From the NCBI GenBank assembly GCA_035628395.1, contig DASPJX010000204.1, forward strand, positions 5,747 through 69,746: DNA of 64,000 nucleotides, read 5' to 3'. Shown piece after piece: positions 1 to 50,397 of this stretch (the stretch's first letter is position 1; each line of letters starts with the position of its first letter). The position numbers and the translations under genes were made by a program. This DNA comes from Burkholderiaceae bacterium (GTDB taxonomy: Bacteria; Pseudomonadota; Gammaproteobacteria; Burkholderiales; Burkholderiaceae_E). Below the pieces are notes generated by a model. It had not been told where the DNA came from, made no database searches, and saw nothing but the letters and a program-made list of their open reading frames with translations.

Positions 1-1448
1 GGCGTCGCGGCGACCGCGACCTCGAGCACGCCGGGATGCCGGCGCAGCACCGACTCGACCTCGACCGCGGCGATGTTCTCGCCGCTGCGCCGGATCACGT
101 TCTTGCGCCGGTCGACGAAGTGCAGCGCCCCGGCCTCGCCGCGGCGCACGACGTCGCCGGTGCGGAACCAGCCGCCCGCCCAGGCCTGCGCGGTGGCCTC
201 GGCGTCCTTCAGGTACTCGCGGAAGAAGCCGCGGCGCGGCTCCGGGCCGGCGGCGCGCACCAGCAGCTCGCCGGGCGTGCCGTCGGGCACGTCGCGGTCC
301 GCCTCGTCGACGATCCGCAGCTCGAGCTCCGGGCCGGGCACGCCGAAGCAGCTCTGCCCGACGTGGCGCGGCTCGCGGTTGGCGATCACGACCGCGCCCG
401 CGCCGGTCTCGGTCATCGCCCAGGCCTCGAGCAGCGGAAACCCGAAGCGCGCCTCGAAGCTCGCGTGGTGGCGCCGGTCCACGCCCGCGCCGAAGCCGAA
501 CCGCACGCCGTGGTCGCGGTCGTCGGGCGACTCGGGCGCGCCGATCAGCATCGCCGGCATCACGCCGAGGTAGTGGACGATCGTCGCGCGCGACGCGCGC
601 ACCGCGCGCCACCAGCTCGACGGATGGAAGCGGTCCAGCGGCACGACGCAGCCGGCCGACAGCAGCATCGCCATCGTCGAGTACGCCATCGCGTTCATGT
701 GCGTCATCGGCAGCGGCGTGATCAGCCGCTCCTGCCCGAAGCGGATCGCGCAGAGCCCGCCGGCCCGCAGGTACCAGCGCCCGGCGATCAGGTAGTACGC
801 GTTGTCGAGCACGCAGCCCTTGGGCCGGCCGGTGGTGCCCGAGGTGTAGAGCAGCCCGCACTCCGAGTCGGGGCCGGGGTCGCCCGCGCGCGGCGCGGGC
901 CCGGGCGCCGGCGCGAGCGAGGCGAGCCCGCGCGGCGCGGCGCCGCCGGGGCCGGCGTGCGTCTCGTCGTCGAGGCTCGGCACGACGCACACCGTGCAGC
1001 CGGTGCGCGCGGCCGCCGCGCGCAGGTCGTCGACCCGCGCCGGCAGCGCGACCGCCACGCACAGCCCGCTGTGCTCGACGAGGTAGTCGAGCTCGGCGGC
1101 GCGCAGCTCGCCGTTGATCGGCACGACGGAGACGCCGAGCGCGTTCAGCGCGAGCCAGGTGAGGAAGAACGACGGCCGGTTCTCGAGCAGCAGCCCCGCG
1201 CGATGGCCGTGGCCGTAGCCGGCCGCCGCGAAGCGCGCCGCGATCTCGCGGACCGCGACGAGCGCGCGGCCGTAGTCGAGCTCGATCGGCGCGATGCCCG
1301 CGCGGTGCGCGACCTCGGGCAGGATCTGCAGGAACGGGCGTCGCGGATGCTCGGTCGCGATCCGCTCGAACGCGGCGAACACGCTCGCGTCGTCGTCGGG
1401 CACGGGGGGCGACGCGCGGCCGTCGCCGTCCGGGAGGAGCGGGCTCAT
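1..1448 (-). CDS. AMP-dependent aryl/acyl-CoA synthetase (3' end cut by the window edge)
   Basis: Absent from the ORF track because it is open at the edge. My translation of the minus strand from ATG at 1448 gives MSPLLPDGDG..., then LLYTSGTTGRPKG (AMP-binding signature), WAMTETG and GWFRTGD. Its ATG overlaps the stop of the upstream beta-subunit gene (ATGA at 1445-1448). Confidence 0.85.
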   Translation of the reverse strand, partial: MSPLLPDGDGRASPPVPDDDASVFAAFERIATEHPRRPFLQILPEVAHRAGIAPIELDYGRALVAVREIAARFAAAGYGHGHRAGLLLENRPSFFLTWLALNALGVSVVPINGELRAAELDYLVEHSGLCVAVALPARVDDLRAAAARTGCTVCVVPSLDDETHAGPGGAAPRGLASLAPAPGPAPRAGDPGPDSECGLLYTSGTTGRPKGCVLDNAYYLIAGRWYLRAGGLCAIRFGQERLITPLPMTHMNAMAYSTMAMLLSAGCVVPLDRFHPSSWWRAVRASRATIVHYLGVMPAMLIGAPESPDDRDHGVRFGFGAGVDRRHHASFEARFGFPLLEAWAMTETGAGAVVIANREPRHVGQSCFGVPGPELELRIVDEADRDVPDGTPGELLVRAAGPEPRRGFFREYLKDAEATAQAWAGGWFRTGDVVRRGEAGALHFVDRRKNVIRRSGENIAAVEVESVLRRHPGVLEVAVAAT

Positions 1449-1936
1449 GGGAAGAGCTGGATCGAGGGCAGCGCGGCGTCGCAGTTCAGCAGGTCCACCC
1501 GCTTCAGGCGGATCCGCGGCGCGCCGTCGACCGTCGCGATCGTGTGGCGCACGACCGCGGCGAGCACGATCTGCGCCTCGCCCTGCGTCTCGACGTAGAG
1601 CTCGTTCGTGCGCATCGTCCAGGTCCCGGCGGCCTCGTCGGCGGACTCGAGCTCCGGGCGCTGGAGCACGTGCAGGCAGCGCACCGGCGGATGCAGCGAG
1701 AACGAGCGCGGGTTGGAGAAGCGCTCGATCCGCAGCCGCAGCAGCAGCTTGTCCTCGTCCATCAGCGAGGTGTGGTTCTCGCGGTCGGGCTGCCCGGGCG
1801 CGAGCGGCACCCAGTAGACGCCGTCGTCCGCGTACAGCGCGTACCACTCCTCCCAGCGGCGCTCGTCGATCAGCCGCGCCTCGAGGTAGACGAGCTCGGC
1901 GAGGCGCTCGGCCGTCGTCGGTGCGGCGCCCGTCAT
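1445..1936 (-). CDS. Aromatic ring-hydroxylating (Rieske) dioxygenase, beta (small) subunit
   Basis: C-terminal 163 codons of track ORF 1445..3139, starting MTGAAPTTAERLAELVYLEARLIDERRWEEWYALY (NTF2-like beta-subunit pattern). ATGA overlaps with the alpha subunit (1933-1936) and the CoA ligase. Confidence 0.8.
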   Translation of the reverse strand: MTGAAPTTAERLAELVYLEARLIDERRWEEWYALYADDGVYWVPLAPGQPDRENHTSLMDEDKLLLRLRIERFSNPRSFSLHPPVRCLHVLQRPELESADEAAGTWTMRTNELYVETQGEAQIVLAAVVRHTIATVDGAPRIRLKRVDLLNCDAALPSIQLFP

Positions 1937-3282
1937 GCCGGCGTCCCCTCGGTCATGTAGCGCGCCCACGCGCGGAACTGGTTGCGCATCGACACCTCGC
2001 TCGTGCCCTTCGTCGTGCGGTCGGCGGCGCCGATCTCCGCGGGATCGAAGTCGCGGTGCAGGCTGACCCACGGGTTGCCCGAGGCGGCGAGCCCCTGCTG
2101 GATCGACCGGTAGCAGTGCAGGTCGTCGTGGCCGACGACCGACATCGGCGAGTTGATCAGCCGCGAGTACGTCATCGTCCGCTTCAGCAGCGACTCGGGC
2201 GCGCCGACCTGCCGGAAGGTCCACGACTCGATCAGCGTCCGGTCCGCGGCGAGCGGGCGCACGACGCGGATCGCCGAGATCGCGCCCTTGATCGTCAGGC
2301 TCGGGTAGTAGACGGTGTTGTGCCGCACCTCGCCGAGGATCGCGTGCGCGCGCTCCTCGCCGTACGCGGCGACCATCGCGCGCTCGTACTCGGGGATCTG
2401 CGAGTACTTCGAGTGGATCGAGCCGTGCACGCCGGTGTAGCCGTGCCCGTTGTCGAACACCCGCACGCCCATCGAGTCGAAGAAGTCGTAGCTCGACACG
2501 AAGGGCACGAACTGCTCGATCGCCATCGGCTTGGGCTCGTCGGCCGGCCGGCCGGACCACAGCCGCTTGGCGGTGCCGGCCGAGGACTCGTGCGCCACCA
2601 TCGGATGCATGGTGTCGTTCAGGTTCTCGACGAACATCTTCCAGTTGCAGTCGTGCAGGTAGCGCAGCACGCCGCCGGCCACCTCGAGCCGGCCTTCGGG
2701 CGAGCGCTCGACCATGTTGTCGATCGAGGTCAGCGACGCGCCGAAGTACTCGCGAAAGCCCGGCCCGTCGTCCGACAGCCGGCAGAACACGAAGCCCCGG
2801 TAGTTCTCGACGTGGCGCAGCGCGGCCATCCCCCGCGCGTTGGGCGAGCGCTCGAAGCCCGTGCCCTCGTAGCCCTGCTTCAGCGGTACCGCCCGGATCG
2901 CCCCGTCCAGGTCGTACGCCCACGCATGGTACGGACAGCGAAAGAACCGCCCGACGTGGCCCGACGCCTCGCTCACCAGCTTCGCGCCCTTGTGCGCGCA
3001 GCGGTTCTCCAGCACCCGCACCGCGCCGTCCTCGCCGCGCACCATCACCAGCGGCCGCCCGGCGATCTCCACCGCCGCGTAGTCGCCCGGCGCCGGCACC
3101 TGGCTGTCGTGCCCGACGTACACCCAGGTGCGCGACCACAGCCGCTCGCGCTCGAGCTCGTACACCTCGGCGTCGACGTACACGTCGCGGTGCACCGCGT
3201 CCTCGCGCACCAGCGCGCGCAGCGCACCCGGATCGTCGCGGTAGCGGCTCCGCGCGCGCGGAGCCCCGGTCGTCGCGTCCAT
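1933..3282 (-). CDS. Aromatic ring-hydroxylating (Rieske) dioxygenase, alpha (large) subunit
   Basis: Track ORF of 449 aa. Rieske 2Fe-2S motif CAHKG...CPYHAW and mononuclear-iron motif DTMHPMVAH. Confidence 0.9.
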   Translation of the reverse strand: MDATTGAPRARSRYRDDPGALRALVREDAVHRDVYVDAEVYELERERLWSRTWVYVGHDSQVPAPGDYAAVEIAGRPLVMVRGEDGAVRVLENRCAHKGAKLVSEASGHVGRFFRCPYHAWAYDLDGAIRAVPLKQGYEGTGFERSPNARGMAALRHVENYRGFVFCRLSDDGPGFREYFGASLTSIDNMVERSPEGRLEVAGGVLRYLHDCNWKMFVENLNDTMHPMVAHESSAGTAKRLWSGRPADEPKPMAIEQFVPFVSSYDFFDSMGVRVFDNGHGYTGVHGSIHSKYSQIPEYERAMVAAYGEERAHAILGEVRHNTVYYPSLTIKGAISAIRVVRPLAADRTLIESWTFRQVGAPESLLKRTMTYSRLINSPMSVVGHDDLHCYRSIQQGLAASGNPWVSLHRDFDPAEIGAADRTTKGTSEVSMRNQFRAWARYMTEGTPA

Positions 3283-3321
3283 TCTCCCTCCCTCCTCAGT
3301 CGGTGGAGCCGGCGCGCCGGC

Positions 3322-5043
3322 TCAGGCGGCGTGCGCGGCGGGCGGCACGGCGCCGCCCCCCTCGAGCCGCGCGAGCGCCGCGCCGAGCGCGACCCCGCCC
3401 TCGTCGGCGAGCGCCGCCTCGCGCAGGCCGCGCAGGCCCGCCGCCGACAGCGCGCCCGGCGGCAGGCGGTCGACCGCCTGCATCAGCCGCTCGAAGTTCG
3501 CCCAGCCGCGCGCGTGCGTGTCCGAGTAGCCGCGCACCAGCGTCTGGCAGCGCGCGATCTCGAGCGCGAGCGCCGGATCGCGACCCGCGACCGCGACGAC
3601 GCGCGCGAGCCAGTCACCGATCCGCGCCGTCTCGACCTGGAAGCGCAGCGACGAGCGGCGGATCCGCCGCAGCGACGCGACCGCGTAGAGCGTCAGGAAG
3701 CCGCGCACCGAGCTCGTCCGCACGACCCGCCCGCCGCCGGCCAGGCGCGTCGCCCAGCCGCGCAGCCGCGGGCCGGCGAGCAGCCGCCGACCCAGCGCGG
3801 CGGGCAGCGTGTCGGCGATCTCCTCGACGCGCGGATGCAGGAACTCCCCGATCTCGAGCAGCTGGCCGTCGGCCAGCCGGACCTCGCCCGCGACCCGCTC
3901 GAAGCGGCTGCGCCGCGTCTTCAGGTCGGCCACGCGCACCGTGTCCTCGTACGACATCCACAGCGCGAGGTGCCGCGCGGTCTCGGCGAGCAGCGCGTGC
4001 GGCGGCTCGCCGGCGATCGCGCCGCCGCCCCGCGCGTCGAGCGCGCGCAGCGGCCCGAGGCGATCGAGGTAGTCGGCCGCGTGCGCCTCGTCCTGCCAGT
4101 CGGCCAGCCGCAGCACGCCCGCGCGCAGCACCTCGTGCGCCTCGGCCGGGAAGTCGGCGACGATCCGCGCCTCGTGCGCGCGCAGCCGCGGCCCGAGCAC
4201 CGTCGGCCGACGGGCCGGGGCGGCCGCGCCCGGTCCGCCGGGCAGCGCCGCGCTGCCCGAGGGGCCGTCGGCGACCGAGGTCGCGCCGGTCGAGACCGCG
4301 TCGCCGGGCGCCGGGAGCGGCGCCGCGGCCGCCTCGCGGGCGGCGTCGAAGCCGGCGGCGAACGCGGCGAGGCTCGCGTCGACGCCGACGCCGCCGCGCC
4401 GGACCGCGGCCTCGAAGGCCTCGCGCGGGAACGGCAGCGCGCCGGTGCCGGCGAGCGCGCCGAACAGCGAGGCGCTGATCACGCTGCGGGCGTCCTCGGC
4501 GAGCCGCGCGAAGTCGGCCGCGACGAACCGGCGCGCCGCGTCGCGGCCGGCCCCCAGCAGCGCCGACGAGTCGACGCGGCCGTCGGCCATCGCGGTCTTC
4601 TCGGTCATCGAATAGACGCGGTTGGTCGAGGCGATCAGCGTGGTGCGGTCGTCGCTGACGAGGCCGCGCTGGATCGCGCGCCCCGCCTCCATCAGCTCCG
4701 AGGCGATCACCACGTCGACCTCGCCGGGCGTCGGCATCAGCGCGAGCACCGGCTCGCGGCCGGCCGCGCGCACCGCCGCCTCGGGGAACAGCTCCACGTA
4801 GTAGATCGTCGCGCCGGTGCGCTGCGCGACGCCGGGCACCGAGGTGGCCTGCGCGACGAAGCCGTTCGACTCGCCGAGGTCGACCACCCAGTCGGCGAGC
4901 ACCCCGCCGCCCTCGCCGCCCATCGCGAGGATCGCGACGCAGATCGCGCGCGGACGCCCCGCGTCCACGACGCCGGCCGTCCCGGCCGTGGCCGCGGGCG
5001 CCGCGGCGTCGCCGCGCGGGCGGGACAGCTCGCGCGCGCTCAT
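3322..5043 (-). CDS. iorB: Indolepyruvate/aryl-2-oxoacid:ferredoxin oxidoreductase, beta subunit (IorB-like)
   Basis: C-terminal 573 codons of track ORF 3322..6711, starting MSARELS at ATG 5043, which overlaps the IorA stop (ATGA 5040-5043). N-terminal AILAMGGEGGGVLADW catalytic-type domain. The upstream part of the track ORF is R/A/G junk antisense to iorA. Confidence 0.8.
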   Translation of the reverse strand: MSARELSRPRGDAAAPAATAGTAGVVDAGRPRAICVAILAMGGEGGGVLADWVVDLGESNGFVAQATSVPGVAQRTGATIYYVELFPEAAVRAAGREPVLALMPTPGEVDVVIASELMEAGRAIQRGLVSDDRTTLIASTNRVYSMTEKTAMADGRVDSSALLGAGRDAARRFVAADFARLAEDARSVISASLFGALAGTGALPFPREAFEAAVRRGGVGVDASLAAFAAGFDAAREAAAAPLPAPGDAVSTGATSVADGPSGSAALPGGPGAAAPARRPTVLGPRLRAHEARIVADFPAEAHEVLRAGVLRLADWQDEAHAADYLDRLGPLRALDARGGGAIAGEPPHALLAETARHLALWMSYEDTVRVADLKTRRSRFERVAGEVRLADGQLLEIGEFLHPRVEEIADTLPAALGRRLLAGPRLRGWATRLAGGGRVVRTSSVRGFLTLYAVASLRRIRRSSLRFQVETARIGDWLARVVAVAGRDPALALEIARCQTLVRGYSDTHARGWANFERLMQAVDRLPPGALSAAGLRGLREAALADEGGVALGAALARLEGGGAVPPAAHAA

Positions 5044-7274
5044 GCCGCGAACCCCTCGAGCCGGCGCTCGATGCGGCGCTGCAGCCAGCCGACGATCCGG
5101 CGGCGCCAGCGGTCGCGACGGCGATCGCCCGCGCTCGGGTTGTGGACGATGCCGGCCCGGTAGAACGACGGGCACAGCACCGCGGCGTGCGACACCTCGC
5201 CGCACAGCCCGCAGCCGACGCAGGAGTCGACGACCGCGGCGATCGGCTCGGTGCGCAGCGGGTCGGGGTTGTCGCGCACCGTCAGCGACGGGCAGCCCGA
5301 CAGCCGGATGCACGAACGATCGCCGGTGCAGGTGTCCGGGTCGACGCCGAAGCGCTCGCGCACCACCCGCTCGCCCGAGGCGATCGCCGCGCGCTGCTTC
5401 GGCTTCTCGCGCCGCTGCCGGTTGAGCATGCACTCGCTCTGCGCGACGACGACCTTCGGGCCCTTCTCGGGCGTGGTCAGCGCCTCGCGCAGCACGTCGC
5501 GCATCCGGGACACCGAGTACGTGTTCGTCACGGTGCGCACCCATTCGACGCCGACGCCGCGGACCGCGCGCTCGATCGGGTTGTTCGTCGAGCGCAGCCC
5601 GTTCTCCGCCTTCGACGACATCACGTCCTGGCCGCCGGTCGCGGCCGAGTAGCCGTTGTCGATCACGAGCAGCACGTTGTCGGTCTTGTTGAACACCGCG
5701 TTGCCCACGCCGCTCGTCAGGCCGTTGTGCCAGAAGCCGCCGTCGCCCATCACGCTGATCGTGCGCTTCGCGGTCTCGTCGGTGTTGAGCGCGGCGGCGC
5801 CCGCCCAGCCCAGGCCGTAGCCCATCGTCGTCGCGCCGATCTCGAACGGCGGCAGGATCGAGAACAGGTTGCAGCCGATGTCGCAGCTGACGTGGTGCCG
5901 CCCCAGCTCGCGCTCGAGCAGCTTCATCGCGGCGAAGATCGGCCGCTCGGGGCAGCCGGTGCAGAACGACGGCGGACGCGCGTGCACGTGCGGCGCCACC
6001 GCGGCCGCCGGCTCGGGGACGCGGCGCGGCGGACGCGCGATGGCCGACGGATCGATCCGCGCGACGACCGGCGCGTCGGTCCTCACCGGCGCGGCGGCGG
6101 CGGCGGGCCGTGCCGCGCGCGGCAGCGGCCGGCCGGCGAGCAGCGCCGGCTCCGTCAGCTCGACGAAGCGCGCGACGCCCGCGGTCACCGCGCCGCCGGT
6201 GTACTCGCCGGCGGCCGGCAGCACGTCCTTGCCGTGGATCGCGGTCTGCAGCCCGGCGCGGCGCAGGATCGTGTTCAGCGCCTGCTCGATGTAGTCGGGC
6301 TGCCCCTCCTCGACGAGCAGCACCGCGCGCTTGTCGGCGCAGAAGGCCGCCACCTCCTCGTCGATCAGCGGATAGGTGACGTTGAGCACGTACAGCGGGA
6401 TGCGGCTGCGGCCGAACGCGTCGGCGAGGCCGAGCGTCTCGAGCGCGCGCACCACGCCGTTGTACATCCCGCCCTGCATCACGATGCCGAGCCCGGACAC
6501 GTCGCCGTCGAAGAACTCGTTCAGCCGGTGCTCGCGCACGAAGCGCACGGCCGCCGGCCAGCGCTTGGTGATCTTCTCCTGCTCGTGCTGGTAGCTCATC
6601 GGCGGCAGCACGATCCGGCCGGTGTCGCGGCGCGGGTTCTCGATCGCGTCCTTCAGCGAGTACGGCGCGCGGCGGTTCGCCTTGGTGCGGAAGCGGCCGT
6701 GCACGTGGCACGCGCGGATCCGCAGCTCGAGCATCACCGGCGTGTTCGAGGCCTCGGACAGCTCGAAGCCCTTCTCGACCATCTCGACGATCTTCGGCAG
6801 GTTCGGGCGCGGGTCGAGCAGCCAGACCTGCGACTTCATCGCGAACGCGTGCGAGCGCTCCTGCATGATCGAGGAGCCCTCGCCGTAGTCCTCGCCGACG
6901 ATCAGCATCGCGCCGCCGGTGACCCCGCCCGAGGCGAGGTTGGCGAGCGCGTCGGACGCGACGTTGGTGCCGACGGTCGACTTGAAGGTGACCGCGCCGC
7001 GCAGCGGCGTGTTCACCGAGGCGGCGAGCGTGGCCGCGGCCGTCGCCTCCGACGCGCTGTGCTCGAAGCGGATGCCGAGCTCCTGCAGGATGTCGTTCGC
7101 GTCGGTCAGCACGTCCATCAGGTGCGAGATCGGCGCGCCCTGGTAGCCGGCCACGTACGACACGCCCGACTGCAGCAGCGCCTTGGTGACCGCGAGGATG
7201 CCCTCGCCCCGGAACTCGTCGCCGTCGCCGAGCCGCAGCGACTGCACTTCCTTCTTGAACGACCTTTCCGCCAC
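5040..7274 (-). CDS. iorA: Indolepyruvate/aryl-2-oxoacid:ferredoxin oxidoreductase, alpha subunit (IorA-like, TPP and 4Fe-4S)
   Basis: Track ORF 5040..7340 (TTG start). Conserved N-terminus AERSFKKEVQSLRLGDGDEFRGEGILAVTKALLQSGVSYVAGYQGAP, TPP motif GDGGFWHNG, and Cys clusters CTGDRSCIRLSGCPS and CVGCGLCGEV. I prefer GTG at 7274, which has GGGAG 6 nt upstream. The TTG at 7340 sits inside the promoter palindrome. Confidence 0.8.
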   Translation of the reverse strand: MAERSFKKEVQSLRLGDGDEFRGEGILAVTKALLQSGVSYVAGYQGAPISHLMDVLTDANDILQELGIRFEHSASEATAAATLAASVNTPLRGAVTFKSTVGTNVASDALANLASGGVTGGAMLIVGEDYGEGSSIMQERSHAFAMKSQVWLLDPRPNLPKIVEMVEKGFELSEASNTPVMLELRIRACHVHGRFRTKANRRAPYSLKDAIENPRRDTGRIVLPPMSYQHEQEKITKRWPAAVRFVREHRLNEFFDGDVSGLGIVMQGGMYNGVVRALETLGLADAFGRSRIPLYVLNVTYPLIDEEVAAFCADKRAVLLVEEGQPDYIEQALNTILRRAGLQTAIHGKDVLPAAGEYTGGAVTAGVARFVELTEPALLAGRPLPRAARPAAAAAPVRTDAPVVARIDPSAIARPPRRVPEPAAAVAPHVHARPPSFCTGCPERPIFAAMKLLERELGRHHVSCDIGCNLFSILPPFEIGATTMGYGLGWAGAAALNTDETAKRTISVMGDGGFWHNGLTSGVGNAVFNKTDNVLLVIDNGYSAATGGQDVMSSKAENGLRSTNNPIERAVRGVGVEWVRTVTNTYSVSRMRDVLREALTTPEKGPKVVVAQSECMLNRQRREKPKQRAAIASGERVVRERFGVDPDTCTGDRSCIRLSGCPSLTVRDNPDPLRTEPIAAVVDSCVGCGLCGEVSHAAVLCPSFYRAGIVHNPSAGDRRRDRWRRRIVGWLQRRIERRLEGFAA

Positions 7275-7314
7275 CGTCCGCTCCCGGCTCCCGCGCCGCC
7301 TGCGCACGGGCGCG

Positions 7315-7341
7315 ATTGCATTAGATGAAAATTCATGCAAT
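7315..7341. promoter_or_regulatory. Perfect palindrome ATTGCAT-N13-ATGCAAT in the divergent iorA / thiolase-like promoter region; candidate operator (possibly for the MarR at 10622)
   Basis: Read directly from the sequence: ATTGCAT at 7315-7321 and ATGCAAT at 7335-7341, in the only AT-rich stretch of this region. It overlaps the predicted promoters TTGCAT-17-AATAGT (plus strand) and TTGACA-17-TCAAAT (minus strand, tgtcaa 7369-7374 and atttga 7346-7351). Confidence 0.35.
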
Positions 7342-7367
7342 AGTCATTTGAAGCCCGAAACTTCCGC

Positions 7368-8561
7368 GTGTCAAGCGTGCCCACCCCCCGAAACCGGATC
7401 GGCTACGACGAGGTCGCGATCGTCGCGCCGGTCACGGTGCCCTACGTGCGCTACTCGATCCGGGCGGCGCACTGGTTCGTCGCGCGGGCGCTGGCGCTGC
7501 TGCTCGAGCGCAGCGGGCTGTCCAAGGACGAGGTCGACGGCGCGTGCGTCTCGAGCTTCACGCTCGCGCCCGACAGCGCGATCGGCCTGATGCAGCACCT
7601 CGGGCTGTCGCCGCGCTGGCTCGACTGGCTGCCGATCGGCGGCGCGAGCGGCGTGATGGCGATGCGCCGCGCCGCGCGGGCGGTGCAGTCGGGCGACGCC
7701 GACGTCGTCGCCTGCGTCGCGGCCGACACCAACCACGTCGACTCGTTCCGGCTCACGCTGTCGAACTTCAGCCAGTTCGCCCGCGACGCGGTGTATCCGT
7801 ACGGCGCGGGCGGCCCGAACGCGAGCTTCGCGTTCCTGACCGACCACTACATGCGCACCTACGGCGCGACCCGCGAGGACTTCGGCAAGCTGTGCGTCGC
7901 GCAGCGCGAGAACGCGCTGCGCAACCCGCTCGCGCTGTTCAGGAAGCCGCTGACCCTGGCCGAGTACCTCGACGCGCGCCCGATCGCCGATCCGCTGCAC
8001 CTGTTCGACTGCGTGATGCCCTGCGCCGGCGCCGACGCGGTGCTCGTGATGCGGCGCGAGCGCGCGCGCGACCTCGGCCTGCCGTACGCGACGCTGCTCG
8101 GCACGATCGAGCGCCACAACGCGTTCCCCGACGATCCGGTGCAGTTCCGGGGCGGCTGGGAGATGGACCGCGACGACCTGTACGCGCAGGCGGGCGTCGG
8201 CCCGGCCGACGTCGACCTGTTCCAGCCCTACGACGACTACCCGGTGATCTCGATGATGCAGATCGAGGACCTGGGGTTCTGCGCGAAGGGCGAGGGGCCG
8301 GCGTTCGTGCGCGAGCACGGCTTCACCTGGCGCGACTCGTTCCCGCTCAACACCTCGGGCGGCCAGCTGTCGGCCGGCCAGGCGGGCTGCGCGGGCGGCT
8401 ACCTGGGGCTCGTCGAGGCGGTGCGCCAGCTGACCGGCGAGGCCGGCGAGCGGCAGGTCGCCGACGCCCGCATCGGGCTGGTCAGCGGCTTCGGGATGAT
8501 CAACTTCGACCGCGGCCTCGCCACCTGCGCCGCGCTGCTCGGACGCGGAGACGCCCGATGA
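7368..8561 (+). CDS. Thiolase-like (SCP-x/Ltp-type) protein lacking canonical thiolase catalytic residues; probable DUF35-dependent retro-aldolase/thiolase-fold enzyme
   Basis: Track ORF of 397 aa with a thiolase fold (NTSGGQLS..., ...DADVVACVAAD...). It has GGASG where thiolases carry CxSG and GQAGCAGG where they carry GHPxGATG. The stop overlaps the next gene's start (ATGA 8558-8561). The exact start (GTG 7368 or 7377) is uncertain. Confidence 0.8.
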   Translation: MSSVPTPRNRIGYDEVAIVAPVTVPYVRYSIRAAHWFVARALALLLERSGLSKDEVDGACVSSFTLAPDSAIGLMQHLGLSPRWLDWLPIGGASGVMAMRRAARAVQSGDADVVACVAADTNHVDSFRLTLSNFSQFARDAVYPYGAGGPNASFAFLTDHYMRTYGATREDFGKLCVAQRENALRNPLALFRKPLTLAEYLDARPIADPLHLFDCVMPCAGADAVLVMRRERARDLGLPYATLLGTIERHNAFPDDPVQFRGGWEMDRDDLYAQAGVGPADVDLFQPYDDYPVISMMQIEDLGFCAKGEGPAFVREHGFTWRDSFPLNTSGGQLSAGQAGCAGGYLGLVEAVRQLTGEAGERQVADARIGLVSGFGMINFDRGLATCAALLGRGDAR

Positions 8562-9802
8562 GCGCGCCGATGACGCGCCCGAAGCGCAAGAACCCGGTGC
8601 TCGCCACGCGCGCGCCGACGCTGCCGCCCGGCGGGCGCAGCCGCGTCGCGCTCGGGCTGACCGCCGCCGCGGCCGAGGGCCGCTTCGCGCTGCAGGCCTG
8701 CGCCGACTGCGGCGCGGTCCAGTACCCGCCGCGCGAGGCCTGCCGCGTCTGCCTGGGCGTGCGGCTGCCCTGGCGCACGCAGGACGGCGCGGGCACGCTG
8801 CTCGCGCAGACCCGGCTGCACCACAGCAACGACCTGTTCTTCCGCGAGCGGCTGCCCTGGCGGCTCGGCATGGTGAAGCTCGCGGTCGGCCCGACGGTCG
8901 TGGCCCACCTGCACGGCGACGTCGGCGCGGCCGGCGAGCGGGTGCGCGTGCGCGCGATGCTCGACCGGGCCGGCCAGGCCGTGCTCGTCGCGCTGCCCTC
9001 CGAGGACACCCCGAACATGAGCGACGACCCGATGCTGCGCGAGATGAGCTGCGACCCGAAGTTCCGCAAGGTGCTGGTCACCGACGCGAAGACCGCGACC
9101 GGACAGGCGGTGGTGAAGGCGCTGGTGGCCGCGGGCGCCGACGTCGTCTGGGCGGGCCACGCCGAGCCCTGGAAGAAGCTGCCGGGCTTCGACGCGCTGG
9201 TCGCGCTGCCGCAGGTGACGCCGGTGCCGCTCGACCCGACCGACTCGCGCTCGGTGGCGGAGCTCGCCGGCGAGATCGGCGGCCGGGTCGACATCGTCGT
9301 CAACACCGCCGAGCACCACCGCGCGCAGGGCATCGGCGGGCGCGTCGCGGTCGAGACCGCGCGCAGCGAGATGGACGTCAACTACTTCGGGCTGCTGCGG
9401 CTCGCGCAGGCCTTCGGGCCGGCGCTGCGCGCGCGCGCGGCCGACGGGCCGACCGGCGCCTGCGCGTGGGTCAACCTGCTGTCGATCTTCGCGCTCGCCA
9501 ACTTCCCCGCGCACGGCACGTTCTCCGCGTCGAAGGCCGCCGCGCTGTCGCTCGCGCAGTGCCTGCGCGCCGAGATGCGCCCGGCGGGCGTGCGCGTGGT
9601 CAACGTGTTCCCGGGCCCGATCGACGACGAGTGGAACCAGCTGCTGCCGCCGCCCAAGCTGCCGCCGGCGGCGCTCGCGAAGGCGGTCGTCGGCGCGCTG
9701 AAGGACGGCACCGAGGACGTCTATCCCGGCGACGTCGCGCAGGAGTGGCTCGAGCGCTGGCGCGACAACCCGAAGGCCCTGGAACGCGAGATCGGCGGCT
9801 GA
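8558..9802 (+). CDS. Fusion protein: N-terminal DUF35 (Zn-ribbon + OB-fold) domain and C-terminal degenerate short-chain dehydrogenase/reductase-like domain
   Basis: In-frame part of track ORF 7544..9802, starting at ATG 8558. Zn-ribbon CADCGAVQYPPREACRVC followed by an OB-fold segment. The SDR-like half is KVLVTDAKTATGQAVVKAL ... HGTFSASKAAALSLAQCLRAEMRPAGVRVVNVFPGPI, with Phe replacing the catalytic Tyr. Confidence 0.75.
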   Translation: MSAPMTRPKRKNPVLATRAPTLPPGGRSRVALGLTAAAAEGRFALQACADCGAVQYPPREACRVCLGVRLPWRTQDGAGTLLAQTRLHHSNDLFFRERLPWRLGMVKLAVGPTVVAHLHGDVGAAGERVRVRAMLDRAGQAVLVALPSEDTPNMSDDPMLREMSCDPKFRKVLVTDAKTATGQAVVKALVAAGADVVWAGHAEPWKKLPGFDALVALPQVTPVPLDPTDSRSVAELAGEIGGRVDIVVNTAEHHRAQGIGGRVAVETARSEMDVNYFGLLRLAQAFGPALRARAADGPTGACAWVNLLSIFALANFPAHGTFSASKAAALSLAQCLRAEMRPAGVRVVNVFPGPIDDEWNQLLPPPKLPPAALAKAVVGALKDGTEDVYPGDVAQEWLERWRDNPKALEREIGG

Positions 9803-9821
9803 GCCGCCACGGAGACCGACC

Positions 9822-10619
9822 ATGGACAGGCTGCCCCCTTCCGAGACGCTCGGCGCGCTGGTCGCCGACCTGCTCGCCGGACGCATCCGCGTCGTCGACC
9901 TGACGCAGACCCTCGCCCCCGAGTTCCCGCAGATCGTGCTGCCGCCCGAGATGGGCCAGTGCCTGCCGTTCCGGATCGAGGAGATCTCGCGCTACGACGA
10001 CCGCGGTCCCGGCTGGTACTGGAACAACTTCTCCTGCGGCGAGCACACCGGCACGCACTTCGACGCGCCGATCCACTGGGTCTCGGGCCGCGACCTGCCG
10101 AACAACTCGGTCGACACGCTGCCCGTCGAGCGCACGATCGGCCCGGCCTGCGTGATCGACTGCTCGGCGCAGTCGGCCGCCGACCCCGACTTCCTGCTGA
10201 CCCGGGACTTCGTGCTCGACTGGGAGTCGCGTCACGGCCGGATCCCGCCGCGCGCGTGGGTGCTGATGCGCACCGACTGGAGCAAGCGCACCGATCCGGT
10301 GGACTACCAGAACTACGACGAGACCGGCCAGCACACGCCGGGCCCCGACGCCGAGGTCGCGCGCTTTTTCGTCGAGGAGCGCGACGTCGTGGGCTTCGGC
10401 ACCGAGGCGATCGGCACCGACGCCGGCCAGGGGGTCCACCAGCGTCCGCCCTACCCGTGCCACTACTACATGCACGGCGCGGGGCGCTACGGGCTGCAGT
10501 GCCTGACCAACCTCGACCTGCTGCCGCCCACCGGCGCCGTCGTGATCGCCCCTCCGCTGAAGATCCGCCAGGGCAGCGGCAGTCCGCTGCGCGTGATCGC
10601 GCTGGTGCCGGGAGGCTGA
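9822..10619 (+). CDS. Cyclase-family metal-dependent amidohydrolase (kynurenine formamidase / isatin hydrolase family)
   Basis: Track ORF of 265 aa with the metal-binding signature CGEHTGTHFDAPIHW (HxGTHxDxPxH). Confidence 0.85.
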   Translation: MDRLPPSETLGALVADLLAGRIRVVDLTQTLAPEFPQIVLPPEMGQCLPFRIEEISRYDDRGPGWYWNNFSCGEHTGTHFDAPIHWVSGRDLPNNSVDTLPVERTIGPACVIDCSAQSAADPDFLLTRDFVLDWESRHGRIPPRAWVLMRTDWSKRTDPVDYQNYDETGQHTPGPDAEVARFFVEERDVVGFGTEAIGTDAGQGVHQRPPYPCHYYMHGAGRYGLQCLTNLDLLPPTGAVVIAPPLKIRQGSGSPLRVIALVPGG

Positions 10620-10621
10620 GC

Positions 10622-11098
10622 GTGGCGCGACGCGCGGACGCGCTCGCCCCCGGCGCGGCGGCGAACGACGAACCGCTCGAGGGCTTCATCGCCGGCTACC
10701 TGCCGTACCTGCTCGCCCGCGCGAGCCACCTGATCTCGGGCCAGTTCCACGCGCACCTGGCCGCGGAGAAGGTGCCGGTGATGCAGTGGCGCGTGCTCGC
10801 CGCGCTGTGGGACGCGCCGAAGTCGGCGCGCGAGGTCGCCGACATCATCCTGCAGAAGCAGCCCACGGTCTCCAAGCTGCTCGACCGCATGGAGCGTCAG
10901 GGCCTCGTGCGGCGCGAGACCGACGCCGAGGACCGCCGGCGGATCGTCGTCAGCCTGTCGCCGCGCGGACGCGCGGTGGCCGGGCCGCTGATCGAGGCCG
11001 CCCGCGAGCACGAGCGCGCGGTGCTCGAGCCCTTCGGCTCGGGCAACGCGCGCGCGCTGATCGCGGCGCTGCAGCGGCTGATCGACGGCAACGCCTGA
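10622..11098 (+). CDS. MarR-family transcriptional regulator
   Basis: In-frame part of track ORF 9959..11098. GTG 10622 has GGAGG 6 nt upstream and lies 2 nt after the cyclase stop. Winged-HTH pattern VMQWRVLAALWDAPKSAREVADIILQKQPTVSKLLDRMERQGLVRRETDAEDRRRIVVSLSPRG. Confidence 0.85.
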   Translation: MARRADALAPGAAANDEPLEGFIAGYLPYLLARASHLISGQFHAHLAAEKVPVMQWRVLAALWDAPKSAREVADIILQKQPTVSKLLDRMERQGLVRRETDAEDRRRIVVSLSPRGRAVAGPLIEAAREHERAVLEPFGSGNARALIAALQRLIDGNA

Positions 11099-11234: not shown

Positions 11235-12104
11235 ATGATCCCTCCCCAGCCCTTCGCCCACCGTGACCGGAACGCCGTGACCGACCTGCCCGTGCGCCGC
11301 CTCGCGATCGACCTCGACACGCCCTTCCCGGTGCGCTGGGCGGGCGGCGACGCGTTCCGCTCGGCGCTCTTCAACGCGCTGTCGATGAGCTTTCCGGTCG
11401 GCGAGCAGTTCTTCATCGACTCGGTCCGCGCCGGCATCGCGGCGCTGCCGCCCGAGCGGCGCGAGGCCTTCGCCGCCGAGGCGAAGGGCTTCATCGGCCA
11501 GGAGGCGACGCACCGGCACGTCCACGCGCGCTTCAACGCGATCCTCGCCGACCAGGGCCAGGTCAACACCGTCGAGGCCCGGGCCGGCCGCCGGATGGCC
11601 GCCGCCGCGAGCCTGGACGTGCGCAACCGGGTGGCGGCCACGGCGGCCACCGAGCACCTGACGGCGGTGTTCGCCGAGTGGACGCTGCGCCATCCCGAGG
11701 CGTTCGACGGCGTCGAGCCCCGGCTGCGCCGGATGTGGGAATGGCACGCCGCCGAGGAGTCCGAGCACCGCTCGACCGCGTTCGACCTCTACGGCGCGCT
11801 CGGCGGCGACCACGCGTGGCGGGTGCGGACCTTCCGCTACGTGACGACGACCTTCGTGATCGACATCGGGCGCCAGACGCTGCGCAACCTGTGGGACGAC
11901 GGCGCGCTGCTGCGACCCTCGACCTGGACGAGCGCCGCGCGATTCCTGTTCTCGCGCGACGGGTTCGTGCGCGGCAACGTCGCGGCGTGGCGCGCGTACC
12001 TCGCGCCGGACTTCCATCCGTCGAGGCACGGCGGCGCGCTCGGCGCGCGCTGGCTCGACGAGCATCCGGACGCGTACTCGGTGGTCGGGCGCCCGGCGGC
12101 CTGA
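11235..12104 (+). CDS. Predicted metal-dependent hydrolase (PF10118-like)
   Basis: Track ORF of 289 aa with FNALSMSFPVGEQFFIDSVR ... GQEATHRHVH ... AAEESEHRS, which resembles the predicted metal-hydrolase family. The true start is possibly GTG 11277, because the ATG at 11235 lies inside a TATGAT -10-like box. Confidence 0.6.
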   Translation: MIPPQPFAHRDRNAVTDLPVRRLAIDLDTPFPVRWAGGDAFRSALFNALSMSFPVGEQFFIDSVRAGIAALPPERREAFAAEAKGFIGQEATHRHVHARFNAILADQGQVNTVEARAGRRMAAAASLDVRNRVAATAATEHLTAVFAEWTLRHPEAFDGVEPRLRRMWEWHAAEESEHRSTAFDLYGALGGDHAWRVRTFRYVTTTFVIDIGRQTLRNLWDDGALLRPSTWTSAARFLFSRDGFVRGNVAAWRAYLAPDFHPSRHGGALGARWLDEHPDAYSVVGRPAA

Positions 12105-13012: not shown

Positions 13013-14008
13013 TCAGACCGACTCGCGCATCGCCCAGCGCATGTCGGGGTAGCGCTCGCCCGCCACCGCCTCGTGCATGCGCAGCGCCTCGATCCGCGCG
13101 AGCGTGCGCGCCGACAGCGCGACGTCGACCGCGTCGAGGTTCTCGTCCAGTCGCGCCCGCCGCGTGGTGCCGGGGATCGGCACGACGTCGCGGCCCTGCG
13201 CGAGCACCCAGGCGAGCGCGAGCTGCGCGGGCGTGCAGCCCGCCTCCCGCGCGATCGCCGCGAAGCCGGCGAGCAGCTCGCGGTTGCGCGCGGCGTTGTC
13301 CTGCGAGAAGCGCGGCTGGCTTCGCCGGAAGTCGTCGGCCGCGAGCGCCGACGGGTCGGTCGCGGCGCCGGTCAGGAAGCCGCGCCCGAGCGGGCTGTAC
13401 GGCACGAAGCCGATGCCGAGCTCGCGCAGCACCGGGAACAGCGGCTCGACGTCGCGGCTCCAGAGCGAGTACTCGGTCTGCACCGCGGCGATCGGATGGA
13501 CCGCGTGCGCGCGCCGCACGGTGGCCGGCCCCACCTCGGACAGCCCGAGCCAGCGCACCTTGCCCGCGCGCACCAGGTCGGCCATCGCGCCGACCGTGTC
13601 CTCGATCGGCACGACGCCGTCGATCCGGTGGACGTAGAACAGGTCGATGCGATCGACGCCGAGCCGCTCGAGCGAGGCCTCGCAGGCCTCGCGCACGTAG
13701 TCGGGCGCGCCCGAGATGCCGCGGAACGACGGATCGTCGCGCCGGCGCAGGATGCCGAACTTCGTCGCGAGCACGACGCGCTCGCGCCGTCCGGCGATCG
13801 CGCGCCCGACGAGCCGCTCGTTGTCGCCGAAGCCGTAGATGTCGGCGGTGTCGAGCATCGTCGCGCCGCGCTCGATCGCGCGGTGGATCGTGCGGATCGA
13901 CTCGTCGGGGTCGGCGGGGCCGTAGAACTCGCTCATGCCCATGCAGCCGAGCCCGAGGGCGCCGACCGCCGGGCCGTCGCGGCCGAGCGTGCGAAGGGGG
14001 ATGTCCAT
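13013..14008 (-). CDS. Aldo/keto reductase
   Basis: Track ORF of 331 aa with [32 protein letters not shown] and the typical AKR C-terminal IPGT... Confidence 0.9.
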
Positions 14009-14563: not shown

Positions 14564-15757
14564 TCAGGCGCGGCGGCGCCACGCGAGCAGCGCGGCGACG
14601 CCGAACACCGTGCCCCAGAACGCCGACCCGACGCCCCACAGCGTCAGGCCCGACGCGGTGACCAGGAAGGTGACGAGCGCCGGCTCGCGCTCGGCCTCGT
14701 CGGCGACCGCCGCCTGCAGCCCGCGACCGATGGTCGGGATCAGCGCGACGCCGGCGAGCGCGACGACCATCTCGCGCGGCAGCGCCGCGAACAGCTGCGC
14801 GATCGGGCCGGCGAAGGCCGCGATCGCGAGGTAGAAGGTGCCGGCGACGGCCGCGGCGAGCCAGCGCCGGCGCGGATCCGGGTGCACGTCGGGCGCCATG
14901 CACAGCGCCGCCGTGATCGCGGCGAGGTTCAGCGCGAACGCGCCGAACGGCGCGAGCACGAGCGTCGCGAGGCCGACCGCGACGAGCAGCCGCGACACCG
15001 GGGCGTCGCCGTAGCCCGAGGCCCTGAGCACCGCGACGCCGGGCAGGTTCTGCGAGGCCATCGTCACGACGAAGAGCGGCAGCGCGACGCCCAGCAGCGA
15101 CGAGACCGCGAAGACCGGCGGCCAGGCGAGCGGCGCGAGCGCGGGCCGCGCGGCGGCGACCGTCGCGTCGCCGAGCCCGGGGCCGGCGAGCGCCGCGACC
15201 ACGCCCGCGACGAGCGTCGCCGGCACCGCCCAGCGCGGCGACGCGCGGCGCGCGAGCAGGTAGGTCGCGAGCATCGCGCCGACGACGGCCGGCGCGGTGC
15301 GCAGCGCGCCGAACGCCTCCAGCCCGAAGCGCAGCAGCACGCCGGCGAGCAGCGCGCTCGCGATCGACGACGGGATCCGGCTCATCCAGCGCTCGAAGAG
15401 CCCGGTGGCGCCGGCCAGCGTCAGCAGCGCGCCGCAGGCGACGAACGCGCCGATCGCCTCCGGCAGCGGCACGCCGGGCAGGCTCGCGGCGAGCAGCGCC
15501 GCGCCGGGCGTCGACCAGGCGGTGACCACCGGGATGCGCAGCCACGCGCTCGGCAGCAGCGTGGTGAGGCCCATGCCGAGCGAGAGCGCGGCCGTCATCG
15601 TCGCCAGCCCCGCGGCGTCGAGGCCCATCGCGAGGCCCGCCTGGACGATCAGCGCGTACGAGCTCGAGAACCCGACCAGCACGCAGACGAAGCCCGCGAC
15701 CAGCACCGCGACCGCGGTGCCGCGCGCCGTGTCCGTGGATCGGGCGTCGGACGCCAT
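14564..15757 (-). CDS. Benzoate/H+ symporter BenE-family membrane transporter
   Basis: Track ORF of 397 aa, polytopic and hydrophobic, with BenE-like segments (LVGFSSSYALIVQAG, MASQNLPGVAVLRASGY). Confidence 0.8.
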   Translation of the reverse strand: MASDARSTDTARGTAVAVLVAGFVCVLVGFSSSYALIVQAGLAMGLDAAGLATMTAALSLGMGLTTLLPSAWLRIPVVTAWSTPGAALLAASLPGVPLPEAIGAFVACGALLTLAGATGLFERWMSRIPSSIASALLAGVLLRFGLEAFGALRTAPAVVGAMLATYLLARRASPRWAVPATLVAGVVAALAGPGLGDATVAAARPALAPLAWPPVFAVSSLLGVALPLFVVTMASQNLPGVAVLRASGYGDAPVSRLLVAVGLATLVLAPFGAFALNLAAITAALCMAPDVHPDPRRRWLAAAVAGTFYLAIAAFAGPIAQLFAALPREMVVALAGVALIPTIGRGLQAAVADEAEREPALVTFLVTASGLTLWGVGSAFWGTVFGVAALLAWRRRA

Positions 15758-44106: not shown

Positions 44107-44131
44107 GTGGGACAATGACGGGTTGTCCCAC
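44107..44131. promoter_or_regulatory. Perfect 9-bp inverted repeat GTGGGACAA-N7-TTGTCCCAC 27 nt upstream of ccmI; candidate operator overlapping a GACAAT -10-like box
   Basis: Read directly from the sequence: arms at 44107-44115 and 44123-44131, with GACAAT at 44111-44116. Confidence 0.3.
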
Positions 44132-44157
44132 GACCGGCTCCGTCCGACGCCCCTTCC

Positions 44158-45549: not shown

Positions 45550-46259
45550 CCGCGTCCGGGTTCGCGGGGCTTCGCGCCGCGGATCTCGCGCTCGCGCGCG
45601 GCGGCCGGCGGCTGTTCGCCGGCCTGTCGTTCGAGCTCGGCGCCGGCGAGGTGCTGCTGCTCGTCGGCCCCAACGGCGCCGGCAAGAGCAGCCTGCTGCG
45701 CGCGCTGCTCGGCCTCGCGCCGCTCGCCGCCGGCACGCTCGCGCTCGCCGGCGAGACGATCCGGCCGCGCGCGCTGTGCGAGCGCGCGCTCTACCAGGGC
45801 CATGCGGCGGGCGCCAAGGGCGAGCTCACCGCGCGCGAGAACCTCGCGCTCGCCGCCGCGCTCGACGGCACGACGGCGGGCGACGGCGACGCCGCGCTCG
45901 CGGCGGCGCTCGACGAGGTCGGCCTCGCGCGGCAGCGCGACGTCGAGACCCGGCGGCTGTCGCAGGGGCAGAAGCAGCGGCTGGCGCTCGCGCGCTTCGC
46001 GCTCGCGCTGCGCGCGCGGGTCCGCCCGCTGTGGCTGATGGACGAGCCGAGCGCCGCCCTCGACCGCGAGGGCGCCGCGCTGCTGCAGCGCATGCTCGAC
46101 GCGCACGCGGCGGCCGGCGGCGCGGCGATCGTCGCGACCCACCTGCCGATCGCCCCCGGCGCGGCGCGGGTGCGCGAGCTGCGCGTCGACGCGTTCGCGC
46201 CGCGCCGCGCGGCGCCCCCGGCGGCCGCGGTCCCCGAGCCCGCGGGCCTCGCGCGATGA
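45546..46259 (+). CDS. ccmA: Heme exporter ATP-binding protein CcmA
   Basis: In-frame part of track ORF 44115..46259. TTG 45546 overlaps the ccmI stop (TTGA). Walker A GPNGAGKSS, signature LSQGQKQR and Walker B LWLMDEP. Confidence 0.85.
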   Translation: MTASGFAGLRAADLALARGGRRLFAGLSFELGAGEVLLLVGPNGAGKSSLLRALLGLAPLAAGTLALAGETIRPRALCERALYQGHAAGAKGELTARENLALAAALDGTTAGDGDAALAAALDEVGLARQRDVETRRLSQGQKQRLALARFALALRARVRPLWLMDEPSAALDREGAALLQRMLDAHAAAGGAAIVATHLPIAPGAARVRELRVDAFAPRRAAPPAAAVPEPAGLAR

Positions 46260-46930: not shown

Positions 46931-46939
46931 CCCGCCGGC

Positions 46940-47665: not shown

Positions 47666-47679
47666 CAGGATCCGCGTCG

Positions 47680-47835
47680 ATGGCCGACCAGCACTGGACC
47701 TTCATCGTCGTCGCGTACGCCGTCTCGGCGGCGCTGATCGTCGCCGAGGTCGTGTCGCTCGTGCGCCGGCGGCGGCGGGCGCTCGATCGCGCGAACGCCG
47801 AGCGCGACCACGACGAGGACGAGCGCGACGCTTGA
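47680..47835 (+). CDS. ccmD: Heme exporter small membrane protein CcmD
   Basis: 51 codons ([35 protein letters not shown]...) in frame within track ORF 46399..47835. A single TM and the position between ccmC and ccmE support the call. Confidence 0.7.
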
Positions 47836-47884
47836 ATCGCGCCCGGCCCCGCCCCACCTCACGGATATCGGACGCCGTACCCCG

Positions 47885-50385: not shown

Positions 50386-50397
50386 CGCGGGCCCGGC

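Follow-up and report, generated by a model that had tools for sequence, protein, structure and literature searches.

The first 11,098 nucleotides of a 64 kb stretch of DNA from a Burkholderiaceae bacterium (contig DASPJX010000204.1, assembly GCA_035628395.1; the whole stretch is called the window below) very probably hold a rearranged, iadC-less copy of the known iad cluster, which breaks down the auxin indole-3-acetate (IAA) via isatin to anthranilate. At the ~75% GC content of the window, raw lists of open reading frames were of no use; genes were therefore called by third-position GC, and families were checked with Pfam and NCBIfam. Positions 1-11098 comprise two divergent, tightly packed operons with nine genes, five on the minus arm and four on the plus arm. 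An earlier note on this DNA (the initial annotation) had described the same two compact operons, and Pfam and NCBIfam returned all nine of its genes and families. The features of the locus are as follows.

<1..1448, minus strand: iadF-like AMP-dependent acyl-coenzyme A (CoA) ligase (PF00501, 190 bits), cut by the left window edge.
1445..1936, minus strand: iadE-like Rieske oxygenase beta subunit (PF00866).
1933..3282, minus strand: iadD-like Rieske oxygenase alpha subunit, IAA monooxygenase component (688 bits to Variovorax paradoxus IadD).
3322..5043, minus strand: iadB-like IorB-family subunit with a POR gamma-like domain and DUF6537 (PF01558 and PF20169; NF006179, 666 bits).
5040..7274, minus strand: iadA-like IorA-family subunit with thiamine pyrophosphate (TPP)-binding and ferredoxin-like domains (PF02775, TPP_enzyme_C, and Fer4_10; TIGR03336, 284 bits, below cut-off).
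7315..7341, no strand: candidate IadR operator, inverted repeat ATTGCAT-N13-ATGCAAT with core CATGAnnTTTCAT at 7325-7337.
7369..7374, minus strand: TTGACA -35 box of the iadA-arm promoter, conserved in 5 relatives.
7368..8561, plus strand: iadG-like thiolase-fold protein (SCP-x/Ltp2-type; PF22691), probable retro-aldolase subunit; alternative start GTG 7377.
8558..9802, plus strand: iadH-like DUF35 protein (Cys4 zinc ribbon and OB fold) fused to an atypical short-chain dehydrogenase/reductase (SDR) domain (PF12172, PF01796 and PF00106).
9822..10619, plus strand: iadI-like isatin hydrolase of the cyclase/arylformamidase fold (382 bits to isatin hydrolase A).
10622..11098, plus strand: iadR-like MarR repressor, final gene of the plus arm (top PDB match V. 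paradoxus MarR_73/IadR).

Overlaps of the ATGA type couple the genes for ligase and beta subunit (the iadF start, ATG 1448, overlaps the iadE stop), beta and alpha subunit, IorB and IorA, and thiolase-like and DUF35-SDR protein. The minus arm had been described as joined by such overlaps throughout. This applies to its junctions ligase/beta, beta/alpha and IorB/IorA, but not to Rieske alpha and IorB, whose genes lie 39 bp apart with a GGAGG site between them. The IorA start was placed at GTG 7274 (MAERSFKK) and not at TTG 7340, because the N-terminus MAERSFK is kept in relatives.

In V. boronicumulans, the published gene order runs iadR (MarR), iadA (iorA), iadB (iorB), iadC (reductase), iadD and iadE (Rieske alpha and beta), iadF (AMP ligase), iadG (thiolase), iadH (SDR), iadI (cyclase) and iadJ (SDR; PMC12852158). 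We scanned a genome collection with an IadD alignment and found a close IadD relative encoded in 530 species-representative genomes; 80 of these 530 loci were kept and searched by tblastn with all window proteins (related loci are cited below by L numbers). The proteins of positions 1-11098 are 42-75% identical to the products of syntenic genes in Variovorax brevis (L082), which has the canonical order R|A-B-C-D-E-F-G-H-I-J and is a true iad locus, since its IadD scores 863 bits against the IadD structure 9o71. In the window the order is R-I-H-G | A-B-D-E-F, that is, the G-H-I-R block is inverted relative to V. brevis. The same divergent ten-gene layout, with unrelated genes on both sides, recurs in L002/L003, L009, L030, L089 and L090, counted as five loci of which four are distinct. 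Gene-neighbourhood conservation, which the initial annotation had proposed as a check, was thus found in these relatives, with gene-by-gene synteny to V. brevis. The downstream module iadF, iadG, iadH and iadI is complete (59-75% identity to V. brevis), and iorA/iadA (COG4231) and iorB/iadB (COG1014), described as exclusive marker genes of iad-like operons (PMC9613470), are both present.

By these matches the window carries predicted orthologues of iadA, B, D, E, F, G, H, I and R, and its locus is iad-like (Variovorax/Achromobacter/Bradyrhizobium type), not iac-like. Like the iac locus of Pseudomonas putida 1290, which leads from IAA to catechol, it has a MarR regulator and a Rieske alpha/beta pair, distantly related to iacC/iacD, but it differs in having the iorA/iorB markers and an isatin hydrolase. 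The iacA-like family (acyl-CoA-dehydrogenase-like/flavin monooxygenase) is absent from the ~60 Pfam-annotated window genes, although no direct sequence search for iacA, iacB or iacI was made. The closest counterpart is the Variovorax-type iad cluster of V. paradoxus CL14, V. boronicumulans and Achromobacter (iadABCDEFGHIJKLMNR; PMC9613470, PMC10374108, PMC12633357), with which the window shares A, B, D, E, F, G, H, I and R. Catalytic and pocket residues of IadD, the DUF35-SDR fusion of IadH, the carboxylate ligands of IadR and an operator-like palindrome ahead of iadA are common to both. The differences, minor in our view, are that iadR is divergent from iadA in the Variovorax type but stands at the operon end in the window, where G-H-I-R are inverted; that iadC, the iadK-N ATP-binding cassette transporter genes and a second MarR gene (IadR2) are missing nearby; that iadJ would follow iadF, judging from relatives; and that the host is a ~75% GC Burkholderiaceae metagenome-assembled genome (MAG).

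The published iad pathway proceeds by oxygenation, CoA activation, side-chain removal and isatin hydrolysis (PMC9613470; PMC12633357). The initial annotation had proposed an IAA locus with the same order of steps, and thereby arrived at a nearly correct version of the published pathway with only the sequence to go on. Matches of IadD, IadI and IadR, together with the synteny to V. brevis, support that assignment. Its gene combination, which had been regarded as undescribed, is that of the iad locus, with iorA and iorB as published markers (PMC9613470).

The oxygenase bears on substrate identity. Against the V. paradoxus IadD structures 9o71_A and 7yls_B, window IadD reaches 688 and 677 bits, compared with 144 bits for the next solved family. 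It keeps 14 of the 14 published residues at an offset of +10: the Rieske ligands C85, H87, C106 and H109, the iron ligands H216, H221 and D377, and the pocket residues N210, L211, F251, H311, K322, R329 and Y362. IadE is 52% identical to its V. brevis counterpart and 76-81% identical to those of the closest loci. A cluster with another purpose would draw on the same families, namely an AMP ligase, Rieske alpha and beta subunits, an SCP-x thiolase-like protein and DUF35. It could then serve the breakdown of aryl acids such as ibuprofen by an ipf/paa-like route, or act on the side chains of steroids or phenylpropanoids. The ipf-like route presumably consists of a CoA ligase, a Rieske oxygenase acting on the aryl-CoA, and deacylation by a thiolase-like protein with DUF35. 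The nearest named NCBIfam Rieske models are indeed benzoate, phenylpropionate and anthranilate dioxygenases, all of them far below their cut-offs. However, the IadD bit score is ~5-fold nearer to the IAA enzyme than to other solved Rieske oxygenases, and the whole IAA pocket is kept; the isatin hydrolase orthologue, the MarR protein with its IAA contacts and the full Variovorax iad synteny, described below and above, speak against such a system as well. We consider a non-auxin function highly improbable, and the ibuprofen-like, steroid and phenylpropanoid options were rejected on the specificity of IadD, IadI and IadR.

As had been anticipated, the cyclase-family protein is closely homologous to characterised isatin hydrolases. 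Full-length comparison of IadI gives 382 bits with isatin hydrolase A (5nna), 354 with 5nmp and 277 with IH-B (4j0n). The metal motif HxGTHxD is present as HTGTHFD, and identity to the V. brevis protein is 75%. The enzymes compared here are IH-A and IH-B of Labrenzia aggregata and Ralstonia solanacearum (5nna, 4j0n, 5nmp); for the window protein this activity is predicted. An isatin hydrolase also fits the route from IAA through dioxindole-3-acetate, dioxindole, isatin and isatinate to anthranilate, which is cited for Bradyrhizobium japonicum (PMC8383072, PMC9613470). The window enzymes would imply the same route, although the B. japonicum pathway is defined by metabolites and not by genes.

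Regulation appears to follow the Variovorax pattern as well. The best PDB match of the window MarR protein is V. paradoxus MarR_73/IadR (7kfo, 102 bits), followed by 7kki and 3cdh, with the next tier at 57 bits. Five of the seven IAA contacts are identical (Y15, S28, H32, W45 and R46), including all three carboxylate ligands S28, H32 and R46; V65 is replaced by Ile, and A18 by Tyr as in the group member 3CDH. Between the arms, the intergenic region 7275-7367 is AT-rich and holds the inverted repeat 7315-7341 with core CATGAATTTTCAT. In its degenerate form, CATGAnnTTTCAT, this core has one copy in the 64 kb window and a single copy in each of 26 related loci, always between genes, just ahead of the operon's first gene and in one orientation; ~0.6 chance matches would be expected in 1.35 Mb. 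A promoter of the form TTGACA-17 nt-TCAAAT/TGAAAT stands ahead of the core and is conserved in L002, L009, L018, L023 and L030. A strict scan of 7150-7500 for sigma-70 promoters and terminators called none, and TTGACA-17-TCAAAT was missed because its -10 hexamer fails the scanner's rule. In the work of Conway et al., a 24-bp IadR site was mapped between iadR and iadA, and we infer that the motif found here corresponds to it. The palindrome at 7315-7341 is thus a candidate operator for IadR, and this single site would serve both arms, with iadR as the last gene of the plus arm.

A sub-type of the locus in Paraburkholderia and relatives (L021, L024, L026-L029, L031, L033-L038, L040, L042 and L046) consists of iadC-D-E-F-J, an IadR-like MarR gene and a divergent thiolase-like gene (~43% identity). 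These loci are without iorAB, DUF35-SDR and isatin hydrolase genes and share a CATGAAnTTTCAT operator core ~1.2 kb upstream of iadD. A further variant was seen in a Lautropia MAG (L004/L005/L014): its cluster is confined to iadD-E-F-J, whose products are 72-78% identical to those of the window and L002, and A, B, G, H, I and R are all missing within 10 kb.

A further difference from the canonical cluster concerns the electron supply. Neither a reductase nor a ferredoxin for the Rieske enzyme was found in the 64 kb, and tblastn with V. brevis IadC (FAD_binding_6, NAD_binding_1 and Fer2 domains) gave a best E value of 1.9, in agreement with the initial annotation. The latter had suggested that such a partner may lie upstream of position 1. 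Relatives do not bear this out: in L002, L009, L030, L089 and L090, iadF is followed by an IadJ-like SDR of 241-242 residues and then by unrelated genes. Since an IadJ-like SDR follows iadF in these close relatives, the gene to the left of position 1 is almost certainly iadJ and not a reductase gene. In 27 other loci iadC immediately precedes iadD; a further 18 loci with IorAB lack it, as the window does. A stand-alone flavin reductase (PF01613; 54216-54743, minus strand) is the product of the sole reductase-like gene of the window; as a Rieske partner it was rejected, being 47 kb from the cluster and of the wrong type.

In a locus without iadC, the electrons for IadDE must come from a donor encoded elsewhere. 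Purified IadDE is inactive in vitro without IadC, yet Variovorax reportedly can do without iadC in vivo. An unlinked reductase is the simplest assumption. Across the loci, iadC and iadAB are weakly anti-correlated (odds ratio 0.30, p = 0.055, kinship ignored). We dropped this complementarity as evidence on electron supply, because the association is weak and takes no account of kinship. As pure speculation, in iadC-less loci such as this one the two electrons released by IadAB from isatinate might return to IadDE via the ferredoxin domain of IorA, which would make the first step self-priming.

CoA activation and side-chain removal would fall to IadF, IadG and IadH. Of IadF, 482 residues are visible versus ~565-570 in relatives, so that ~85 C-terminal residues are missing; the visible part is 59% identical to the V. 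brevis protein and 79-82% to those of L002 and L009. IadG is 69% identical to V. brevis. Its PDB matches are 9myr (185 bits), 4u4e (160), Ltp2 6ok1 (149) and BbsB 7pxp (110), and the nearest solved relatives (9myr, 4u4e, 6ok1) are thiolase-fold proteins without the nucleophile. At the site of the thiolase nucleophile Cys, IadG has Gly (IGGASG), as does Ltp2, where the true thiolase 7yvy reads aaCASG. The equivalent of Ltp2 Tyr294 is kept, while the Tyr344 site aligns to Gly across an indel, in an alignment to 6ok1 of 149 bits only. We take Tyr294 and Tyr344 to be the catalytic residues of Ltp2, with these residue numbers assumed from the literature.

IadH is a DUF35-SDR fusion in 25 of 25 orthologues, V. 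brevis included. The DUF35 Cys4 residues Cys48, 51, 62 and 65 are kept in every orthologue whose alignment covers the motif. By contrast, the C-terminal domain of window IadH departs from a classical SDR with its Ser-Tyr-Lys triad. Its cofactor motif reads TDAKTATGQA (TD[AG]KTxxGQA across loci) and not TGxxxGxG, and the catalytic Tyr is Phe (FSASK, residue 322) in both the window and V. brevis; among 25 distinct sequences, these two counted, Phe occupies this position in 17 and Tyr in 8.

The published role of IadG and IadH is that of a 'ketothiolase plus alcohol dehydrogenase' (PMC12633357). Because IadG is without the nucleophile Cys and the SDR half of IadH is degenerate, we favour an Ltp2-ChsH2-like retro-aldol reaction over a thiolytic one, in which dioxindole-3-acetyl-CoA would be split into isatin and acetyl-CoA. 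The aldolase-type features, with Gly in place of the nucleophile Cys as in Ltp2, fit the retro-aldol release of acetyl-CoA that the initial annotation had put forward, and the role of 'alcohol dehydrogenase' given to IadH in print may have to be reconsidered. Both the steroid side-chain retro-aldolase Ltp2-ChsH2 (6ok1) and the benzoylsuccinyl-CoA thiolase BbsAB (7pxp) likewise pair a thiolase fold with a DUF35 zinc-ribbon/OB partner on a CoA ester. IadG is like Ltp2 in having no nucleophilic Cys and in keeping the Tyr294 equivalent, but the similarity is only 149 bits (110 to BbsB). Moreover, the window DUF35 is fused to an SDR-like domain where the Ltp2-ChsH2/BbsAB comparison has a MaoC hydratase fusion, and the substrate, dioxindole-3-acetyl-CoA, would also differ.

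Taken together, these assignments suggest the following course. Without IAA, IadR would sit on the palindromic operator of the shared divergent promoter, and IAA would free both arms, as the conserved residues and the operator imply. By homology to the Variovorax enzyme, the Rieske alpha3-beta3 oxygenase IadDE would oxidise IAA at the pyrrole ring with a reductase encoded elsewhere, and the IadJ-type SDR expected just left of the window would complete the formation of dioxindole-3-acetate. IadF would then make the CoA thioester, from which a complex of IadG with the DUF35 domain of IadH would remove the side chain as acetyl-CoA, probably by retro-aldol cleavage, to leave isatin, or dioxindole after reduction. 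IadI would open isatin to isatinate (2-aminophenylglyoxylate), which would be converted to anthranilate. IadAB would be an accessory two-subunit TPP/[4Fe-4S] 2-oxoacid:acceptor oxidoreductase.

Several points weigh against the assignment to the iad pathway. The host is a MAG and the locus is known from sequence alone. There is no linked uptake system among the window genes, and no transporter is joined to the locus. The absence of iadC from the 64 kb stands against the requirement of purified IadDE for IadC in vitro; iadJ is not in the window and is predicted from relatives alone. The MarR protein is only ~42% identical to Variovorax IadR, with the pocket change A18 to Tyr. Finally, the retro-aldol view differs from the wording of PMC12633357 and draws on sequence features, with Tyr344 not clearly kept.

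IadAB is the one part of the locus for which two readings compete. IadA has the TPP motif GDGG-x25-IDNG and Cys clusters, with an identity of 67% to the V. brevis protein and of 83-88% to those of L002, L009 and L089; IadB is 54% identical to V. brevis. Neither subunit passes the models for indolepyruvate oxidoreductase (IOR) sensu stricto (TIGR03336 alpha, 284 versus a cut-off of 651; TIGR03334 beta, 23 versus 206), and IorB passes the broad subfamily model NF006179 only, with 666 bits. The iad literature searched assigns no step to IadA or IadB, and no gene to the conversion of isatinate to anthranilate.

One reading, which we hold tentatively, joins this orphan enzyme to this orphan step. 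IadAB would be an isatinate (2-aminophenylglyoxylate):acceptor oxidoreductase, and the route would end in 2-aminobenzoyl-CoA and not in free anthranilate. Gene order is consistent with this: in the arrangements of L043, L067, L078 and L081, the isatin hydrolase gene stands 4-37 bp upstream of iorA-iorB. Co-occurrence points the same way, with 17 loci having both IorAB and IadI, 19 neither, 3 IorAB only and 5 IadI only. These counts are phylogenetically non-independent, however, and IorAB tracks the whole G-H-I module; 5 G-H-I loci are without IorAB within 10 kb, and 3 loci have IorAB without IadI. Isatinate (C8H7NO3) builds up strongly only in the iadC-K2 strain without iadAB (PMC12633357), a link to IadAB that is our own inference. 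The same nine-gene iadC-K2 construct, though devoid of iadAB, fully restores anthranilate in V. paradoxus (PMC12633357), and the observed end product is free anthranilate (PMC9613470). Furthermore, no enzyme consuming 2-aminobenzoyl-CoA and no thioesterase is evident in the window, L089 or L090; the annotated genes of the rest of the window likewise include none for anthranilate or aminobenzoyl-CoA.

Alternatively, and about as doubtfully, IadAB may be a generic arylpyruvate (indolepyruvate/phenylpyruvate):ferredoxin oxidoreductase outside the isatin branch, feeding in indole-3-pyruvate as indoleacetyl-CoA or acting on an unrelated aromatic 2-oxoacid. Proteobacterial IorAB are otherwise tied to arylpyruvates: in Aromatoleum they are described as making phenylacetyl-CoA from phenylpyruvate, and for the aerobe Phaeobacter the listed function is indolepyruvate oxidoreductase. 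NF006179 is over its cut-off, and the 284 bits to the IOR_alpha model TIGR03336 can be read as support, yet as an equivalog score they are far under the cut-off of 651. That IadAB is dispensable for the conversion of IAA to anthranilate suits this reading too. On the other hand, IadDE acts on free IAA (indole-3-propionate and indole-3-butyrate are not turned over), so that indoleacetyl-CoA would need a thioesterase, and none is encoded in the locus. The tight I-A-B adjacency in four architectures would also be left unexplained.

Relatives of IorAB outside iad loci bear on both readings. In Polaromonas and Pigmentiphaga we found operons of the following type, with no iad genes and an IorA 76-77% identical to that of the window.

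L086 10001-16682, L087 and L088 10001-16640: LysR | IorA-IorB-DctP-DctQ-DctM.

The operon combines relatives of the window IorAB with a carboxylate importer of the tripartite ATP-independent periplasmic (TRAP) type. Because the same orthogroup occurs beside DctPQM without iad genes, its substrate can be an imported acid, which agrees with a generic arylpyruvate enzyme. In a neighbour-joining tree (no bootstrap), the TRAP-linked IorA sequences branch from within the iad-linked clade, and the DctP adjoining IorAB is Bpro_4736 (PDB 4mnc/4mni). Foldseek likewise gave 4mnc and 4mni as top matches of the binding-protein models, although these models are poor (predicted local distance difference test scores, pLDDT, of 34 and 44). 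Bpro_4736 (4mnc/4mni) was reportedly solved with benzoyl formate (phenylglyoxylate, des-amino isatinate). The place of the TRAP-linked IorA within the iad clade, beside this binding protein, counts in favour of isatinate, and the tentative nature of the ligand clue counts against it. Gene order and the TRAP-linked sister context hint at an arylglyoxylate substrate for IadAB. We rate the isatinate and the arylpyruvate readings about equally, each as a tentative option. That IadAB acts on isatinate as an arylglyoxylate:acceptor oxidoreductase, with the pathway delivering 2-aminobenzoyl-CoA and not just free anthranilate, seems to us rather doubtful, if conceivable.

In Pigmentiphaga, genes for a molybdenum hydroxylase of three subunits and for a further Rieske alpha/beta pair flank the IorAB-DctPQM operon. 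TRAP binding proteins ~50% identical to Bpro_4736 are also encoded within a few kb of iad loci (L002 19888-20877, L007, L013, L015, L004, L059 and L074); none of this type is found in the window. These iad-linked binding proteins may serve the uptake of IAA or of an acid of the pathway.

Beyond the cluster, one gene directly follows iadR.

11235..12104, plus strand: PF10118 'predicted metal-dependent hydrolase' (238 bits), pathway membership uncertain.

Its product has no NCBIfam or PDB match. A 74% identical homologue lies by the MarR gene in L009, and one is also found in L089; L002 and L090 have none. An aldo-keto reductase gene (window 13013-14008, minus strand) has 84-85% identical counterparts in L002 (1037-2032), L009 (84-1073) and L089 (1542-2549). 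This conservation next to the cluster could be mere synteny among close relatives, or the enzyme could reduce isatin or an aldehyde. At 3.5 kb from the cluster lies a gene for a benzoate-type membrane transporter of the BenE family (14564-15757, minus strand); none of the related loci has it conserved nearby, so it is probably unrelated. The remaining genes of the window have housekeeping roles: prfC, TTT and CNNM transporters, peptidases, trehalose genes at 36.7-42.8 kb (otsA-like GT20, trehalose phosphatase, GH15) and a complete cytochrome c maturation operon (ccmABC..EFGH/CycH; 44131-51470, plus strand).

Since iad-like loci are already catalogued across many genera, the window locus itself adds little. 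Its compact ten-gene version without transporter and reductase recurs in uncultured Burkholderiaceae and shows the core genes. The operator core CATGAnnTTTCAT could mark IadR regulons in genomes, including Paraburkholderia-type loci without A, B, H and I. Sequence features suggest that two published assignments merit re-examination: IadG and IadH, which resemble an Ltp2-type aldolase complex with an SDR half often devoid of the catalytic Tyr, and the orphan IadAB beside the orphan step from isatinate to anthranilate. If IadAB takes isatinate, the pathway's native exit would be missing from engineered auxin-degrading inoculants that carry only iadC-K2.

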